Below, piece after piece: positions 1,511-32,462 of a stretch of 39,920 nt of DNA. A model generated the notes under the pieces. It searched no databases. It was not told the DNA's origin and saw only the letters and a program-made list of their open reading frames with translations. Source of the DNA: a virus; the UHGV virus genome UHGV-1299713; one strand, given 5' to 3'. Every line of letters begins with the position of its first letter. The stretch's first letter is position 1. The translations under genes were made by a program, and so were the position numbers.

Positions 1511-3406
1511 TTACAATATTCTAACTTCACCGTATACGCTCAATATTTTATCAGGAACAAGGTCGCTTCTACCTTTAATTTGAACATATGGCAAATCATC
1601 AGTATTTAATTCCAAATTTGTAGAAAAGAACACTCCTCCACCACTCTGGATTGAGCTACTAAATTCAAAGAACTCACCAGACATGAATAATCCTTTCAGT
1701 CTTACACTTCCAGACTGATGGTTTACAACTATGTTCACACTTAATGTCTCAACTGCATTATGAATTGCAGATGTCTTTAGTAACAATGTTGAATTACCAA
1801 AATCTATCCACTCAAACCCATATTCACCATCAAGACCACCTGAAAATTTACCAGCATAATTACCAGTTAATATAGAGTTGACGACATTTCCGCTAACTCC
1901 ATTTATTTTCTTCCTCTGGTCTATTCTGTGATTAACTCCAAAATAACCTTCAGGAACAATTAAATCTCTGGTACTAGAAGCAACAGAGTCATAAAATTCA
2001 ACCCTTACACCATGACCATAAGTGTTTTCCTTTGTTTTTAATATCCTCCCAATGTTATCAGCATTTTCAAACCTGTTACTTCCAGAAATAAATATTTCAC
2101 TAGCTGGCGTATCTGCATACCCAACAAAAAACATTGAGTCCTTAGAGATAAAATTCACATAGTTATTTTCAAGTAATGATGAAAATACATAACTACCAAA
2201 ATAAACACCAACATCATCGACATTTTCGATGTATGAGTTACATAATTTGAAATCATAAACAGCGGCATTAAATTGTATGCCAACAGTGCAACCTTCAACA
2301 GAAATACCATCCATTACAAGCGATGTTACAGGCCCATCAAATCTATATTGCATTTGGGCATTTGTTGCAATCAGTCTTGTGAATTCGTTTAAATTATGCG
2401 CACCGCTAAAAACAAATCTATCTCCCAAATATTCCTGCGGATATTCAAAAACAATATTATCCAATTTAAGGTAGTAGTTATTGTGTGAGTGAATACCAAA
2501 TGATGAGCAATTACAAAATATATTTTTAATCTCACACCCATGATGCCAGTCTTGAATCCTTAGACAGGCTGAACTCAACCTATTATTATCTGTGCTTGAT
2601 ATAATAGAGAAATTTGATAATGAGATATACTTACTGTAATGTGAATCATCACTAGAACCAAAGTTGCTTACAAGCATACCGTTATCATTATAATATCCAC
2701 TCTCAAAAAGAGTAATATCTGAAAGCATGTTGAATACGCAACCGCATCCATCTATAATTTTTTGCTTTGCCCTCTCAAATGTTTCATCGAAATTTTGAGG
2801 TATAATTAATGTTTTTTTTATGCCATATACCTTACCTGGAACTCCAATTATTTTTTTGTTGCTATTAAATGCCTCTTTTATTCCTGCTTGAATGTAGTCA
2901 GAGCAGTCAATATCTGATGTATTCCCATTAATGTCTGGCGGTATGAAATCATCAAAAGAAAGTGTTTCCCTTAATTTAATTAATGATGTCGTGCCTTTTG
3001 CATTGTTTTCACTCTGAATGAATCCTATATATTTTGAACCATCGTTTCCAGACAATCTTTCTTCAAGCTGATCAGGGTCATACTTCAGCACATTTGGGAA
3101 TTTGAACTGCTGCGCACCGTACGCATCATAAACAGCCATGGAATGGCCTTGCACAGTTACGAACTTGGCAATCTGTCCGTTATATACCGGATATCCGGCA
3201 GCGTTAATAATGATTGGTTGCGAAACAGGAACGTGAGAGCCGTCTTCGTTCTCCACATAAACCTGAATCTGGTTTTCAGGGTTTACCGGGTCAGTGTCAA
3301 TTTTACCGATATAAATTTTACCATTGGCTACGGCTTTAAAAGAACGAGCCATAGTGAAGAGTTGCGAAGGCATGCTTACCACAACATTTGCGGTGATATC
3401 TGACAT
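1511..3406 (-). CDS. Tailspike protein with P22 gp9-like head-binding N-terminus and a divergent receptor-binding body (start at [13 protein letters not shown] 3406, GGAG 7 nt upstream)
   Basis: First ~120 aa closely resemble the P22/HK620-type tailspike head-binding domain; the remaining ~500 aa are unrelated to the P22 sequence and the DNA is visibly AT-rich. Confidence 0.85.
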
Positions 3407-3527
3407 TTCATTGCTCCAGACGAATGATATGATGCAACCATGATGTGATTGCATACCGAAATGGTACTATTGAGTATTTATCCAGTAGGTTACGATGCCA
3501 TTCCACCCAACTGGTGAGGCATCAAGG

Positions 3528-3794
3528 ATGTACAGCAAATACGACGAGGCGCAGTTTCACTTGAGACTTCCGCATGAACTCCACGCGAAAATTAAACAGC
3601 GTGCGAAGATGAATAACAGATCGCTGAACTCAGAGATAATTGCAGCGATTGAAGAATCATTGGCTAAACAAAGCTCTGCATCCGTTTACATTGACGATGC
3701 AGAGCGTATGGCAGAGCAACAATCTGATATGGTTAAGAAAATTGTTTTTGAAACGCTTAAGACCATGTATAGCAATAATAAAAAGGAAACATAG
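3528..3794 (+). CDS. mnt: Mnt-like ribbon-helix-helix repressor
   Basis: Resembles P22 Mnt as recalled (RMP-EV--KLK-RA--NGRSMNSE, C-terminal DAERLAEQQSDMVKKIVFETLK); ATG 3528 with upstream GAGG; no arc or ant genes nearby. Confidence 0.7.
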   Translation: MYSKYDEAQFHLRLPHELHAKIKQRAKMNNRSLNSEIIAAIEESLAKQSSASVYIDDAERMAEQQSDMVKKIVFETLKTMYSNNKKET

Positions 3795-3864
3795 AAATCT
3801 AGTTTCCGGCTAAAATGGCATTGCCTTCATGATATCCTGTGAAAAACTAAGGAGAGTTAACCAT

Positions 3865-4350
3865 ATGAAAAAATCACTGTTAATTATCCCTCTTCTGCTG
3901 GTTGGATGCGCAAAAGTAAGTGACTATCAAGCAAGTTGCGAGCAACGCTATCAAAAGCTTAGCGATATGGCTAATTGCCTTGATGCCAGCGTGAAGAACG
4001 ACTCACGCATGGCATCAGCACCAACACCTAAGCTGTATGTCCTTGCTGCAAAGATGCTCGGGCAAGGCGTCGATGAAGGCAAGATAAGTGACGCACAGGC
4101 AAGACTTGAGCTTCAGAATCTTTATGTTCAATTACAAAGCCAAGAACAAGCCCAACAAATAGCACAAAGCCAAGCATTCCAGCAGGCTTTATTGAATTAT
4201 CAGGCTGTAAACACAATGCAAGCGATCGAGCAAAAAGCGCGCCAGCCTGTTATAACTCAACCTTACCCAACACGCGTTGACACATATACAAACTGCAATT
4301 CAGGATTTGGAAACACGGTAACATGCAACAGTAGCAGTAGCATCAGATAA
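3865..4350 (+). CDS. Predicted lipoprotein, function unknown (candidate superinfection exclusion or moron protein)
   Basis: Signal peptide with lipobox MKKSLLIIPLLLVGC; AAGGAGAG RBS 8 nt upstream of ATG 3865; Gln-rich helical middle; Cys/Ser-rich tail. Confidence 0.7.
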   Translation: MKKSLLIIPLLLVGCAKVSDYQASCEQRYQKLSDMANCLDASVKNDSRMASAPTPKLYVLAAKMLGQGVDEGKISDAQARLELQNLYVQLQSQEQAQQIAQSQAFQQALLNYQAVNTMQAIEQKARQPVITQPYPTRVDTYTNCNSGFGNTVTCNSSSSIR

Positions 4351-4440
4351 CAATCAGCAAAGGTATCGCCTATGCAGAGGGATACGATAAACCTCGCGTT
4401 CTACATATTTGGTTTTTGCACGTTCCTGGTGTTTGAAAGG

Positions 4441-6438
4441 CTATTCTGACAACGAATCAGACTTCGCACCCTGCGTCAGTGCATTAATCGCTTTTTGCGC
4501 TTGCTGCATGGCTTTCTCAAACGCTGTCGATCCGCGTGGGGTGTTTGCCATTCGGAGCATTGCATTTCTGAATGGCTCGCTCTCATAGGCGCGAGTAAGA
4601 AGTCCGTAGCTTACTGCTGCGCCAGTTGTCGCCGGGTTCATTGCCGTCCCATACCCAATAATGAACGGGATGGTTTGCTGCCCTGTTGGTGTTGTTACTG
4701 CTGCTTTTGCAGCCTGCTGCGTGGATTGCAGGTAGTTTTTCAATCCTTTCAGATAAGCGGCTTCCTGACCTTTAAATGTGATGCCAGTCTGGTTTTGCAG
4801 GATATTAAGCTGCCGAAGGAACTGGTCAGGGGATCCGCCAGATTTCTCCATCGCCTTTCCAATGATGCCATTGCGCATTTGCGCCCTGCCAACACGACCA
4901 ACTGAGTTATACAGAGTCTTAATTTCCGATTTGTTCTTGCTGAATAGCATGTTGTTGACAACTTCTGGCGTCAGATCGCCTTTCATGAGAACATTCTTCA
5001 GCCTGGTATTCTTGAGTTTCGCTGCTTCGTCAGCATAGACGGCATTGGCCTGCTGATATTTACGGAGAGTATCGTTGCCAAGATTCTGACCAATGGCACC
5101 ATTGATATCGTCGGTCATTGCCTTGTAAACGCGCTGAATGGCAGCATCGGAACGGTTTGGTAACACTGGTCGCTCACCCTTCACGTCCATTCTGAACTGG
5201 CTGCGCAGGTCGCTTAATTGCTTCAAATCCAGATTTACAGGACCATCAGGACCAGCATTGCGAACAAGCTCATCACGATAGGACTGAAGTTTTGAAATAG
5301 TCTCGTTATCAGCGACCTTACCAAGCTTCTGCAGGTTAGATATTTCTGTATCAATCTGCTGAATTGCTCGCGCAGGCTGAATGTTTACTCCAGCCATAGC
5401 ATGCTGAACCTGCTCCAGTCGATTACCGGCGGCACGACGAATTCCTGATGTTTTCGCTTTAAGGCTGTCAATAACAACCGCTGGATCATACTCACCGAAT
5501 TTATCAGCAAATCTCTGAACCAACTGGCTTCTCGCTTCCTGTTGCGTTGCTCTCATTCCGCTTGTGCCAGCCAGAGGGATATTTTCTGCTATAGTCTGCG
5601 CCATTTTTCCGACGCGGGAAGTTGGTTGTAACAGGTCTGTGGTGTGCAGAGGAGTTCCTTCACGCTCTGCAAATCTGATAGCCTGCTGCGCTTCTGGCGC
5701 GATAGCACCACGAACGCCACGATAAGCAGCACCTAATCCACGTCCAGCAGCGTTAATAGCACCGCCAGCAAGTACACCAACGCCTAAATCGGTGGCGAGT
5801 GCTTCCGCATCATCTTTCGCACTATTTGCAGCAAGTGATCCAACTGCGTTTTCTGCTAGAAGGCGAGTCGCCCCCTGAGCAATTCGACCAGCAAGTGTTG
5901 GTGCCTGTACTGCCGCTCTCTCAACACCAGCAGGAGTGAGGTAAGGCAATGCTTCAGCAAATACCCTTCCCTCTGTCGTTTGTGGAGTCAGCGCGCCTTG
6001 CTGAAGGCCAAAGTCCTGCTCTAATCCCTGCGTTGTTACTCGTGGTGCTGGTTGATATGTGCCATCGCCAATACCGAGTTTACCTCCGGCCCATGCCGCT
6101 GCGCTTGTTACAGCATCGGCAACTGATGCAGGTATGTTTGCCACGTTCACGCCAGCCTGCACCAGTCCGCGACCAGTCTCTTTTACTGCTTCGCCAAGAT
6201 CAGACATAAATCTACTTTGCTGTGGTTGTTGCTGTGCTACTGGTTGCTGTGTCTCCACTTGCTGCACAGATGGCAATGGATAGGCAGCATAGAAAGCTTG
6301 CTTAGCCTGCTCTGCATTTTCTCCGGCTTGCGGGGCCACGACTTCATTGAAGTATTGCTCCTGAGCCTGCGCTTTTTGTTCTGGTGCTAACGCCTGATAC
6401 TGTGGAGAGGCGATAACATCTTTCCATGCTTTAGCCAT
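4441..6438 (-). CDS. Ejection (DNA transfer) protein, P22 gp16 homolog
   Basis: Position last in the P22-order ejection protein set 7-20-16; 665 aa; Ala/Gln-rich. Confidence 0.8.
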   Translation of the reverse strand: MAKAWKDVIASPQYQALAPEQKAQAQEQYFNEVVAPQAGENAEQAKQAFYAAYPLPSVQQVETQQPVAQQQPQQSRFMSDLGEAVKETGRGLVQAGVNVANIPASVADAVTSAAAWAGGKLGIGDGTYQPAPRVTTQGLEQDFGLQQGALTPQTTEGRVFAEALPYLTPAGVERAAVQAPTLAGRIAQGATRLLAENAVGSLAANSAKDDAEALATDLGVGVLAGGAINAAGRGLGAAYRGVRGAIAPEAQQAIRFAEREGTPLHTTDLLQPTSRVGKMAQTIAENIPLAGTSGMRATQQEARSQLVQRFADKFGEYDPAVVIDSLKAKTSGIRRAAGNRLEQVQHAMAGVNIQPARAIQQIDTEISNLQKLGKVADNETISKLQSYRDELVRNAGPDGPVNLDLKQLSDLRSQFRMDVKGERPVLPNRSDAAIQRVYKAMTDDINGAIGQNLGNDTLRKYQQANAVYADEAAKLKNTRLKNVLMKGDLTPEVVNNMLFSKNKSEIKTLYNSVGRVGRAQMRNGIIGKAMEKSGGSPDQFLRQLNILQNQTGITFKGQEAAYLKGLKNYLQSTQQAAKAAVTTPTGQQTIPFIIGYGTAMNPATTGAAVSYGLLTRAYESEPFRNAMLRMANTPRGSTAFEKAMQQAQKAINALTQGAKSDSLSE

Positions 6439-20055: not shown

Positions 20056-20574
20056 TCACTTTGGCAGTCCGGGGATCGATATTTGCGCCTGCTGCTCAAG
20101 CCTTTCGATTCTTGCTATGAGTTGCGGTTTTTTGATCCTGCCCCAGCGGTTCAGCAAGCGTCCTGACATACTGGCAACATCCTTTTCCTTCATGAACTCC
20201 AGCATTAACTCGTTGTGCTCTCTTTGGTATGAGTGAGCCATCTCCATCAGCCTGTCACGCATCCAATTAAATGCTTTGATAAACGCCTCTTTGATGGCGG
20301 CAGCTTTTTTGCCGGTAAACGACATGATGATGTACATCGCGCCGTCTTTGGAAATTTCATATTCAACATACTGATTACCCTTGTGTTCATAGGTAACCCG
20401 CGAAAAGTTGCTGGTTAGAAATTCATCCGAACAGTCTAGCTTTTCGATTTTCTGAATGATGTGGTGATGCTGCTTGTCGAAGTAAGCTGCTACCTTGCGG
20501 GAGGTTGTGATCACGCGATCACCAGAAACAACCACCATGTCCCGGAAATCGAGATTAGCCAATTGATGATTCAT
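20056..20574 (-). CDS. rha: Rha-family phage regulatory protein (start at MNHQLANLDF, not the 253-aa ORF)
   Basis: Placement after the lysis genes as in P22; sequence reads as Rha-family (MNHQLANLDFRDMVVVSGDRVITTSRKVAAYFDKQHHHIIQKIEKL). Confidence 0.7.
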   Translation of the reverse strand: MNHQLANLDFRDMVVVSGDRVITTSRKVAAYFDKQHHHIIQKIEKLDCSDEFLTSNFSRVTYEHKGNQYVEYEISKDGAMYIIMSFTGKKAAAIKEAFIKAFNWMRDRLMEMAHSYQREHNELMLEFMKEKDVASMSGRLLNRWGRIKKPQLIARIERLEQQAQISIPGLPK

Positions 20575-20716
20575 AGCGTCTTTACCTTTTAGAAAGTGAG
20601 CCTGTCTCACAGAAAAGCCGCCCGAGAGAGGTCGCCACCTATAACGGCATTTCTCAGGCTCGCTTACTGAAAGGCTCTCGTTAATATGCGCGTGAGATGC
20701 GCTGTGAAATTCAGAT

Positions 20717-20741
20717 ATAAAAAGCCCCGCGAATGCGAGGC
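20717..20741 (-). terminator. Candidate terminator after the lysis cassette
   Basis: Minus-strand GCCUCGC-AUUC-GCGGGGC hairpin followed by UUUUUAUAU. Confidence 0.4.
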
Positions 20742-20916
20742 TAAATCCTGGTATTTGTAATGAACTGGCTCTTATCTCAACGCAGCCCCTTACCGCGCGC
20801 CAGATGCTCAATATCAAGCATCAGCAATGAGATGTTTAATCTGGATTCACTCCAGAAGTGATCACCACCCTGTCTACAGAGCCAGATGTGAAGGATGATG
20901 AGTAAAATTATCGCTA

Positions 20917-30809: not shown

Positions 30810-30928
30810 AAACAGATACCAAACGAGATGGGTTTGGCGGTGATGTGAATTGCAGCTGCAACGACAGCAACCAGAAGATCAGCATCTGGCGCATCACCAC
30901 CAAAGCCATTTCACATGAGGAAAACATC

Positions 30929-31270
30929 ATGACGGTAATCGTGTACGGGAAATCAACATTCGCAGGAAATGCCAAAACTCGCCGTCATGAGCGGCGCAGA
31001 AAACTGGCTATCGAGCGTGATGCTATATGCAACATCATTGATTCTATCTTCGGCACAGACAGTGAGGAACCTGTTCAGGAAGCCCCAAGAAAGCGTTTAA
31101 GCATTTCTGAAAAAGCAATATCACTCGGAAGCCTTCGCTGCAAGAAGGCAGATGAAGTCGAGCGTAAACAGAACCGTATTTACTACCGCAAGCCACGCAG
31201 TGAAATGGGTGTGACATGCTCAGGCCGCCAGAAGCAACGCGGAAAATCAATTCCAGCTTATTACGATTGA
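30929..31270 (+). CDS. N-like transcription antiterminator (P22 gp24-type)
   Basis: Starts MTVIVYGKSTFAGNAKTRRHERRRKLAIERD, an arginine-rich motif as in N proteins; GAGG 8 nt upstream. Confidence 0.75.
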   Translation: MTVIVYGKSTFAGNAKTRRHERRRKLAIERDAICNIIDSIFGTDSEEPVQEAPRKRLSISEKAISLGSLRCKKADEVERKQNRIYYRKPRSEMGVTCSGRQKQRGKSIPAYYD

Positions 31271-31604: not shown

Positions 31605-32462
31605 ATGCCAGGATTTACAAGTAAATTCATACCAAGAAGAGAATTCAAGCATAATCCAGAAAGACTAAATGTTATTTCTTCCGGTGGTGGAACTCAAAGT
31701 AACGCAATAATCTGCTTAGTACATGCTGGCGTTCTTCCAAAGCCTGACATTATCGTTATGTCAGATACAGAACGTGAGGCAAGTAATGTATTTGAATATC
31801 AGAAAAAATATATAGCTCCTATTTGTGAAGATATGGGTGTTGATTACCTGATTGTTCCTAAAAGTAGATTTGCTACCTACGACATTGATGGGCCTGATCC
31901 AGACGTTCCTCTACCTGGATATTTCACAGAATACGAGGGAAGGGATTCAAAAGGAATGTGCGCTGGAAAGCAACCAGCATTTTGTTCTATAAAGTGGAAA
32001 ACTGAAGTTATTCAGAGATTTTTAAATGAAAGATATGGAGAGAAGTATCTTACAGCAAGAGGAGTGGATAGTTGGATGGGGATAAGCATTGAAGAGGCTA
32101 AACGAAGAGCGAAATACCCAACTGGCAAGTGGCAGAGGCGCTATCCACTTATTGAAATGCTAATGACTAAACAGATGGCAATTCAATGTGTCGAGGATTA
32201 TGGTCTTCCTACACCACCTGCCTCGCTTTGCTGGATGTGCCCTAACAGAGATGATGATCTGTGGCTTTATATGAAAAATAACGTCCCATCTGATTTTGAA
32301 AGAGCATGTCAGCATGAAAAAGAGATACAAATGAAGTGGCCTCATTTGTGGCTTACTAAATATGGTGTTCCACTATCTGAGGCACCACTAACACCTAGTG
32401 GTGGTAAAAATGCACAAATGGATCTTATACAATTCTGCGATTCTGGACTGTGCTTCGCTTAA
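31605..32462 (+). CDS. PAPS-reductase-like / PP-loop ATP pyrophosphatase family protein
   Basis: PP-loop-like SSGGGTQSNAI near the N-terminus and C-terminal Cys motifs (CAGKQPAFC, CWMCPN); AAGGAGA RBS; AT-rich DNA. Confidence 0.7.
   Translation: MPGFTSKFIPRREFKHNPERLNVISSGGGTQSNAIICLVHAGVLPKPDIIVMSDTEREASNVFEYQKKYIAPICEDMGVDYLIVPKSRFATYDIDGPDPDVPLPGYFTEYEGRDSKGMCAGKQPAFCSIKWKTEVIQRFLNERYGEKYLTARGVDSWMGISIEEAKRRAKYPTGKWQRRYPLIEMLMTKQMAIQCVEDYGLPTPPASLCWMCPNRDDDLWLYMKNNVPSDFERACQHEKEIQMKWPHLWLTKYGVPLSEAPLTPSGGKNAQMDLIQFCDSGLCFA

Follow-up and report, generated by a model that had tools for sequence, protein, structure and literature searches.

An mnt-like repressor gene and a predicted outer-membrane lipoprotein gene as two candidate cassettes at the immI/sieA position of a P22-like prophage

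What do an mnt-like repressor gene and a lipoprotein gene do side by side at the place where phage P22 carries its immI region and sieA? This question is raised by positions 3407 to 4350 of the virus genome UHGV-1299713, a stretch of 39,920 nucleotides (nt) that is called the window hereafter and represents a P22-like (Lederbergvirus-type) prophage. The explanation that we consider best, with a probability of roughly 0.4, takes the interval as two cassettes, an autoregulated Mnt and an exclusion lipoprotein. What the analysis adds to earlier knowledge is a candidate third Mnt/operator class and a common and conserved lipoprotein, prophage-expressed in its LF82 orthologue and predicted to reside in the outer membrane, that appears to alternate with sieA beside gene 16.

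Both genes lie on the plus strand, the mnt-like gene at 3528-3794 (88 amino acids) and the lipoprotein gene, a phrog_6067 member with a lipobox, at 3865-4350 (161 amino acids), with a gap of 70 base pairs (bp) between them. On the left they are bordered, after a gap of 120 bp (3408-3527), by the minus-strand tailspike gene (1511..3407), whose product starts with MSDITANVV at 3407 and has a P22-type head-binding N-terminus (Pfam Head_binding, E=3.9e-66; 75% identity to P22 gp9 residues 1-113). On the right, 90 bp lead to the convergent minus-strand gene of a gp16-type DNA-injection (ejection) protein (4441-6438; 33% identity to P22 gp16, E=2e-74), and the ejection genes gp16, gp20 and gp7 occupy the minus strand from 4441 on. 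By sequence criteria both open reading frames (ORFs) are real and not chance, because homologues are numerous, the ratio of nonsynonymous to synonymous substitution rates (dN/dS) of the lipoprotein gene is about 0.05 and mnt is intact in all 80 related loci listed. The anatomy of the locus and the identity of the cassettes are thus described with high confidence.

The gene order annotated in P22 is gene 9, ant, arc, Omnt with Pant and Pmnt, mnt, orf59a, a terminator, PsieA, sieA and gene 16. Since the window keeps this frame with mnt and the lipoprotein gene only, the latter takes the site of P22 orf59a plus sieA. The first-pass annotation had placed an Mnt-like gene and a lipoprotein at these coordinates, as the ORF listing, the sequence and Pfam bear out, and had equated the interval with P22 immI, in agreement with the order and strands on the annotated P22 map. 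Its statement that arc and ant are absent gained further support from tblastn with P22 Ant, Arc, SieA and orf59a, which gave no match over the whole window (best E=0.24), and needs the correction that a Rha-like protein matching anti-repressor PHROGs is encoded elsewhere in the window. Rfam models detected neither sar nor any other RNA family in 3000-4700, and of the immI components mnt, arc, ant and sar, mnt alone is present.

Such an interval is ordinary for this phage group. The interval that separates genes 16 and 9 was named the "ant moron" by Villafane et al. 2008 (PMC2629481), and in ST64T, ST104 and Para1 it consists of mnt and one unknown gene only (PMC2629481). An orphan mnt has been described in phage L as well (PMC8022706). 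The placement of sieA between genes 16 and 9 has been reported, together with its presence in only 22 of 66 P22-like phages (Leavitt et al. 2024, PMC10883804). The window interval is therefore a minimal form of the known ant moron, and an mnt without arc and ant is not new, because it was described for phage L, ST64T, ST104 and Para1.

Translation of the lipoprotein is placed at the ATG at 3865, though the ORF opens at 3829, because AAGGAG stands at 3849-3854. The N-terminus reads MKKSLLIIPLLLVG and then C, with the signal peptide MKK-SLLIIPLL-LVGC, which ends in the lipobox LVGC and is the only hydrophobic segment of the protein. The lipobox cysteine, Cys15, is encoded at 3907-3909 and followed by alanine at position +2. 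In E. coli, the +2 rule assigns lipoproteins with alanine at this position to the outer membrane. Lipidation at Cys15 and sorting to the outer membrane are inferred on these grounds. Cys15 does not vary in the close family, and no less than 90% of the wide family has it; Cys25 and Cys38 are invariant, Cys144 and Cys154 nearly so, and the N-terminal 100 residues are strongly conserved. An AlphaFold2 model built on an alignment of 121 sequences reached a pLDDT (predicted local distance difference test) of 88.7 and shows short helices at 18-70, a long helix at 76-125 (50 residues) and a hairpin at 139-159 with the last two cysteines. The predicted architecture is accordingly a disulfide-containing helical head, a long helix and a C-terminal beta-hairpin stapled by a disulfide. 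The glutamine-rich helix and cysteine- and serine-rich tail noted at first reading were seen as described. The gene has a dN/dS of 0.047 against VSe13 and 0.052 against 720R6, which indicates strong purifying selection.

Of the PHROG profiles, phrog_6067 alone matches with E below 1e-3; the match is full-length (E=6.5e-110, residues 1-161 on profile positions 1-161 of 161), and the profile carries the function label unknown. Pfam, NCBIfam and PADLOC returned nothing for the lipoprotein, Pfam nothing for 22 diverse family members, and a second homology (profile) search added no named relatives; the homology search against Cor, Llp and Bor-type lipoproteins that the first-pass annotation proposed found no match to such families in PHROG, NCBIfam, Pfam or PADLOC. 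No fold match was obtained in PDB or BFVD. In a full HMMER scan, 247 representative clusters shared the head domain together with the C-terminal motif TxC..G..xCxS(Y/R). Three distant members have readable contexts: one is chromosomal beside uvrC and earP, one is unclear and one belongs to a P4-like integrative element. The fold appears not to be phage-restricted because distant members occur in chromosomal and P4-like contexts. Two other candidate assignments were rejected. The GspK identity, suggested by a weak match (E=8.6e-4; 18.9 bits where the cut-off is 130) and by one database record of that name, is a glutamine-rich artefact, and antisense ORFs inside the gene (e.g. 4028-4216, 62 amino acids) recur in relatives through DNA conservation only.

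Close relatives of the lipoprotein are found in phages Gally, vB_EcoP-720R6, VSe13 and Brookers and in prophages of Serratia, Yersinia, Morganella, Klebsiella aerogenes, Citrobacter, Pectobacterium and others; a scan of a genome collection with the narrow alignment found five loci. At every examined P22-like locus with both flanks visible (hosts E. coli, Salmonella, Serratia, Yersinia, Morganella and Proteus, with differing gp16 types) the lipoprotein gene lies between gene 9 and gene 16 and is convergent with gene 16. What stands upstream varies. For 80 listed IMG/VR loci whose lipoprotein is at least 96% identical, window-type mnt is directly upstream in 41, Gally-type mnt in 18 (some with an opposite-strand gene for a 139-amino-acid lipoprotein in between), a full ant-arc-mnt region in about 17 and a VSe13-like context in 1; three have no mnt (one truncated). 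At locus L304, P22-type mnt and orf59a are followed by the lipoprotein at the P22 sieA site. Conversely, in at least 29 of the 80 Mnt loci listed, and also in phages Sf101 and IME10, mnt leads straight to gene 16 and the lipoprotein gene is missing. Because lipoprotein and mnt each occur without the other, the lipoprotein gene is best described, on comparative grounds, as a free-standing cassette beside gene 16, and its pairing with mnt in the window as one combination among many. The mnt-plus-lipoprotein arrangement itself was found in 105 of 5426 complete E. coli genomes (~2%). The closest complete-genome match to the interval (L025; E. coli ZY22049, NZ_CP103329.1 1450386-1469762; 98.8% identity) is a degraded prophage at tRNA-Arg beside intS and yfdC, which has lost most head genes and retains tail and injection genes, mnt and the lipoprotein gene.

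Probes of P22 SieA (type A) and HS1 SieA (type B; type C was outside this search) gave no tblastn match in 172 loci carrying this lipoprotein or this Mnt; many of these loci are near-identical, and the count overstates the number of independent events. The type B protein of HS1 has 212 amino acids, contains FNRYPGEARKFNK and is encoded directly convergent with gene 16. By blastp, the lipoprotein has no meaningful match to P22 or HS1 SieA (E=0.21 over 9 residues). Lipoprotein and sieA thus behave as alternatives at one site, which fits an analogous function and also simple competition for position.

Evidence of expression comes from the Gally prophage of E. coli LF82, which carries a 97%-identical orthologue, GALLYPH_13. 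RNA sequencing data in the supplementary tables of Misson et al. 2023 (PMC9928086), given as log2(fpkm+5) (fpkm, fragments per kilobase per million) for two replicates, list GALLYPH_13 at 6.29 and 5.96 in overnight LB culture, 7.87 and 8.15 in B1, 8.02 and 8.22 in B6, 10.29 and 10.30 after 1 h in macrophages and 8.70 and 8.54 after 6 h. The neighbouring gp16 gene stays at 3.6-4.1 in all conditions (PMC9928086). The orthologue is therefore transcribed from a repressed prophage, and its upstream region differs from that of the window. As for the window gene, no terminator is predicted in the 70-bp gap behind mnt, and a candidate extended -10 element, TGaTATCCT (3830..3838, plus strand), is common to four upstream contexts. 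The lipoprotein gene would probably be transcribed by read-through from the mnt promoter and from this weak element of its own.

The other cassette encodes a protein 46% identical to P22 Mnt, with a ribbon-helix-helix (RHH) N-domain at residues 7-49 (Pfam Arc, PF03869, E=8.2e-15, 54.8 bits against a cut-off of 20.4) and a tetramerisation helix at residues 57-81 (Repressor_Mnt, PF11423, E=3e-11, 43.3 bits against a cut-off of 20.9). Eight Mnt proteins from three classes agree without variation in twelve fold residues. The recognition strand reads Q-F-H-L-R in the window and H-F-N-F-R in P22. Among the 80 IMG/VR loci listed, which were chosen by Mnt similarity, the mnt ORF is intact in every one, and the distinct codon changes of one allele group comprise 20 synonymous and 10 nonsynonymous ones, those of the other 26 and 21. 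Mnt is not a remnant, because its ORF is intact and constrained. In Gally, the mnt transcript rises 40-fold in macrophages, and deletion of mnt did not affect survival (PMC9928086). Two labels were discarded: "partition protein ATPase", attached to phrog_795, is a propagated misannotation for a protein of 88 amino acids with no ATPase domain, and a toxin-antitoxin pair with Mnt as RHH antitoxin conflicts with the downstream protein being an exported lipoprotein and with the independent occurrence of the two genes.

A search of 3407..3527 for an Mnt operator palindrome, proposed with the first annotation, revealed the candidate CATACC-GAAAT-GGTACT, a 17-mer at 3452..3468 centred on 3460 that abuts the -35 element of the mnt promoter, as Omnt does in P22. 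When the upstream regions of P22, L, Gally, 720R6, Brookers, VSe13, Sf101, three Serratia prophages, HS1 and MDR_56 were aligned with it, a palindrome appeared at one fixed place in every sequence, directly 5' of an ATTG.. -35 element, and its sequence co-varied with the outward-facing residues of the recognition strand over three classes. P22, with H-F-N-F-R, has AGGTCCAC-C-GTGGACCT; L, Gally and 720R6, with Q-F-N-L-R, have AGACCAC-N-GTGGTCT. The Q-F-H-L-R proteins go with AGTACC-N5-GGTACT in the three Serratia prophages (perfect arms; spacers ATTAT, ATGTT and ATTTT) and with CATACC-N5-GGTAC(T/G) in the window, VSe13, HS1 and MDR_56. All three classes are centred on the same base and share GG at +3 and +4, and the change from Asn8 to His accompanies loss of the inner GT. 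The arms are kept where spacer and upstream flank vary, even with an entirely different flank. Residues 6, 8 and 10 of P22 Mnt reportedly read the operator, according to work of Sauer and Susskind. The Q-F-H-L-R pair thus appears to represent a third, previously undescribed Mnt/operator specificity class, supported by this co-variation.

The exact operator core is unique in the window, and no convincing further copy of the pattern that could mark a second Mnt target was detected there. The Rha-like regulator mentioned above is encoded by the ORF 20056-20817 (minus strand, likely start about 20574) between the Rz spanin and small terminase genes; it matches phrog_518 at 8e-80 plus several PHROGs labelled anti-repressor, P22 carries a comparable Rha-like gene at the same place, and no Mnt-operator-like site was found near it. 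The candidate mnt promoter (plus strand), placed by alignment with annotated P22 Pmnt (TTGAGA-17-TATCAT), to which it is orthologous, consists of TTGAGT (3470-3475), a 15-nt spacer and TACGAT (3491-3496); it was missed by a consensus scan, which requires a spacer of 16-18 nt. Between the tailspike ribosome-binding site and the operator lies an imperfect 23-bp palindrome, ATGCAACCA-N5-TGATTGCAT (3432..3454), that overlaps the left edge of the operator by 3 bp and is unique in the window (0.07 expected by chance); it is present in Sf101-type relatives and not in VSe13, L or Serratia. In the mnt leader, an inverted repeat GATGCC...GGCATC (3494..3523, plus strand) encloses the Shine-Dalgarno sequence GAGG. 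By sequence comparison and RNAfold of the complementary strand, this repeat is kept in L, 720R6, VSe13 and Serratia and not in P22; its possible roles are control of mnt translation or a folded element in the late-strand transcript.

From these data the following picture can be drawn. The interval would be an ant moron cut down to two cassettes that are independent of each other, expressed by the prophage and located on the strand opposed to the late operon. Next to gene 9, mnt would be a working, self-regulating repressor unit that no longer controls an antirepressor, with a Q-F-H-L-R Mnt tetramer binding the 17-bp operator CATACC-N5-GGTACT where it touches the -35 element of its own promoter; that Mnt is functional and autoregulated is probable. 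After export and lipidation at Cys15, the lipoprotein would be sorted to the outer membrane, from where the helical head, the helix of roughly 75 Angstrom and the C-terminal hairpin would project into the periplasm. As a lysogenic-conversion protein it would stop incoming phages from entering, either at the outer membrane or in the periplasm, via a surface receptor or via the ejection-protein conduit. Superinfection exclusion is the best single guess for its function from position, cell location and analogy, with odds that nevertheless stay short of even. A bolder joint proposal, doubtful at present, holds that the phrog_6067 lipoprotein forms a new exclusion class that replaces SieA and acts from the outer-membrane side, and that Q-F-H-L-R Mnt with TACC-N5-GGTA is a natural re-specified RHH pair. 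In that case the long helix and hairpin might intercept the tail needle or the trans-periplasmic conduit of gp7, gp20 and gp16, or mask a secondary receptor, after recruitment from a widespread uncharacterised family of proteobacterial envelope lipoproteins.

Several observations weigh against the two-cassette explanation. The lipoprotein has no similarity in sequence or fold to SieA, T5 Llp, Cor, Bor or any solved protein; in the profile search of PDB, T5 Llp (8a60_B) was touched over the signal peptide only (E=0.19). Its distant family occurs in chromosomal housekeeping contexts and in a P4-like element, and the fold may serve host physiology. The non-co-occurrence with sieA could reflect competition for one insertion site. 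In LB, GALLYPH_13 was 4.5-fold above the prophage median, which is under the 5-fold cut-off that the authors used for morons, and it was not listed by them as one (PMC9928086). With regard to transcription, the candidate extended -10 element is missing from four upstream contexts, and the spacer of the mnt promoter is 2 nt below that in VSe13 and Serratia. The left operator arm of the window is degenerate (CATACC against AGTACC in Serratia) and polymorphic in a few loci. Finally, the mnt deletion in Gally showed no macrophage-survival phenotype (PMC9928086).

The strongest rival concerns the lipoprotein and is nearly as likely as exclusion, although it too is tentative. It regards the protein as a conversion factor of the host-fitness or virulence type, Bor-like in role, that modifies envelope physiology, for instance under stress or in macrophages, and takes no part in exclusion. 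Relative to LB, GALLYPH_13 transcripts are up roughly 16-fold after 1 h in macrophages and roughly 4-fold in B1 and B6 (PMC9928086), chromosomal members that are not from phages lie beside housekeeping genes among the 247 clusters of the wider family, and no known exclusion protein resembles the lipoprotein. However, the five rightmost Gally genes, tailspike and mnt included, rise together, and the induction may be regional (PMC9928086). The lipoprotein gene is not mentioned in the searched text of a preprint on CRISPR interference with LF82 in the gut. A host-fitness role also leaves unexplained the strict placement at the sieA site in P22-like phages of six genera.

For Mnt, the question is what it controls. 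The first-pass annotation offered two answers, re-purposing for the lipoprotein and a remnant able to repress ant of a superinfecting relative. According to the first, which we consider unlikely, Mnt is dedicated to regulation of the lipoprotein, and both genes belong to a single operon under Mnt control. The genes are co-directional without a predicted terminator between them in the window, they lie 17 bp apart and are probably co-transcribed in Serratia prophages and the Proteus phage Brookers, and 41 of the 80 lipoprotein loci listed have window-type mnt directly upstream. Nevertheless, the genes also occur apart: the lipoprotein is found without mnt in Yersinia, in Morganella and at loci L253 and L309, or behind other genes or a complete immI, and mnt lacks the lipoprotein in the at least 29 listed loci and the phages Sf101 and IME10 noted above. 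In Gally and 720R6 there is a terminator after mnt, and the lipoprotein gene has promoter-like sites of its own; in LF82 grown in LB, where a terminator and an intervening gene separate the two, lipoprotein transcripts are about 5 times those of mnt (PMC9928086). In addition, the operator lies upstream of the -35 element, centred near -45, where repression is not obligatory. The suggestion of re-purposing thus stands as weakly supported, by the spacing in Serratia and Brookers and by the missing terminator.

It has also been considered, and is about as improbable, that the mnt cassette mainly tunes the tailspike. Bound Mnt 45-60 bp upstream of gene 9, together with opposing transcription from Pmnt, would limit read-through that starts at the late promoter or within genes of the interval. 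Because no strong terminator or minus-strand promoter is predicted in 3300-4500, gene 9 must be reached by read-through. Among the loci listed, Q-F-H-L-R Mnt is always immediately divergent from gene 9, the sole exception being an HNH insertion (L232 2698-3207, E. coli 23CRST042), where an HNH endonuclease gene lies between tailspike and mnt and the tailspike start region is duplicated at the junction. The same idea was already raised for P22, in which the interval is thought to affect the frequency of late transcripts that reach the tailspike gene, with the possible participation of Mnt and Arc (Villafane et al., PMC2629481). Still, the inference is purely positional, and Sf6, the APSE phages and others do without such an interval (PMC2629481). 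The Gally mnt deletion had no reported phenotype either, with macrophage survival and not tailspike levels as the readout (PMC9928086).

P22 Mnt acts in trans on Pant. An orphan Mnt might therefore serve as a decoy immunity factor which represses the ant promoter of incoming P22-like phages and protects the lysogen from induction; this trans action, the intact and constrained state of a protein without a local ant target, and the abundance of ant-carrying phages in the same hosts speak for it. It is nonetheless improbable. Among about 130 loci listed (49 IMG/VR loci found by operator pattern, 80 by Mnt similarity), the operator class of the window was never found at an arc or ant promoter, with Ant probes of P22 type and one of P22AR type, and no Pant-like leftward promoter was found in the interval of the window. 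Where ant shares the interval with a Q-F-H-L-R Mnt, it has other neighbouring regulators and a different palindrome: helix-turn-helix in HS1, a second mnt plus arc in MDR_56. In HS1 (E. coli HS prophage, L313 30463-35140) the order is sieA, the helix-turn-helix gene, ant and then Q-F-H-L-R Mnt beside gene 9, and in MDR_56 (E. coli, L230 2710-5374) the Q-F-H-L-R Mnt and its operator stand beside gene 9 and a separate mnt/arc/ant module with another palindrome lies further in. The suggestion of a remnant that represses a superinfecting ant is consequently disfavoured, as Mnt is intact and constrained and its operator class is absent from the ant promoters of these loci.

That both genes are decaying, functionless leftovers of a once complete immI/sieA region, as loss of arc and ant relative to fuller intervals, the imperfect left operator arm and the short promoter spacer might suggest, is largely refuted by mnt being intact with a synonymous excess in 80 of 80 loci listed, by the lipoprotein dN/dS of about 0.05 and its conservation over six genera, by transcription of the orthologue and by the full arrangement in 105 complete E. 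coli genomes.

Some further features of the window and of related intervals deserve description. The integrase gene is at 141-1334. In the tailspike gene, the receptor-binding part (1600-3000) has a G+C content of 30-35%, against 48-54% in the adjoining injection genes, which suggests that the specificity domain was acquired recently. The early region holds a PAPS-reductase-like gene (31605-32462; PAPS, phosphoadenosine phosphosulfate; phrog_424, E=6e-35), downstream of a gene for an N-like antiterminator (30845-31270). Other lipoproteins are encoded in the interval by relatives, namely the 139-amino-acid protein of Gally and 720R6 (lipobox LSGC; L002 2464-2883 and L005 2947-3366) and orf62 of phage L (lipobox LAGC; L008 2761-3054), which lie on the late strand and are unrelated in sequence. 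In LF82, the gene of the 139-amino-acid lipoprotein is among the most strongly expressed Gally genes (PMC9928086).

P22-like prophages abound in E. coli, Shigella and Salmonella, and sieA is carried by only about a third of the sequenced P22-like phages (PMC10883804). What occupies the sieA site in the other phages therefore has practical weight for host range and phage therapy. The lipoprotein is one frequent occupant, and its family occurs in P22-like elements from six genera or more. If it does act in exclusion, the outer membrane would have in it a counterpart to the SieA of the inner membrane; if it serves host physiology, it would be a prophage copy of an unstudied family of envelope lipoproteins that is strongly induced in macrophages. 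The three Mnt/operator classes provide a small natural data set on how the DNA specificity of RHH proteins changes. Current understanding of these phages is not overturned.

Compared with known systems, the locus stands closest to immI/sieA of P22. It has the same position between genes 16 and 9, both mnt and the neighbour of gene 16 are opposed to the late operon, the mnt genes are homologous (46% identical proteins) and the operator is placed alike relative to the mnt promoter. The window differs from P22 in having no arc, ant, sar, orf59a or sieA, with the lipoprotein in place of SieA, in the sequence class of its operator and in showing no Pant-like leftward promoter. With phages L, ST64T and ST104 (mnt plus orf62) it shares an mnt without arc and ant that is divergent from gene 9, one small accompanying lipoprotein gene and a kept operator palindrome. 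Nevertheless, orf62 has no sequence relationship to the lipoprotein gene and is encoded on the late strand, and the L-type Mnt (QFNLR) goes with AGACCAC-N-GTGGTCT and not with TACC-N5-GGTA. The lipoprotein lacks homology to T5 Llp, Cor of phi80 and N15, Ltp of TP-J34 and Bor of lambda, but resembles them as a small phage-encoded envelope lipoprotein of the lysogen or infected cell. As for SieA of P22 (type A) and HS1 (type B), a multi-pass inner-membrane protein with the motif FxRYPxEAxxFNK is set against a lipoprotein with a cleaved signal peptide, a predicted outer-membrane location and no SieA similarity. Yet in both cases an envelope protein is encoded next to gene 16, convergent with it and in the same interval, and is expressed by the prophage, as was shown for P22 sieA itself and, for the lipoprotein, in its orthologue.

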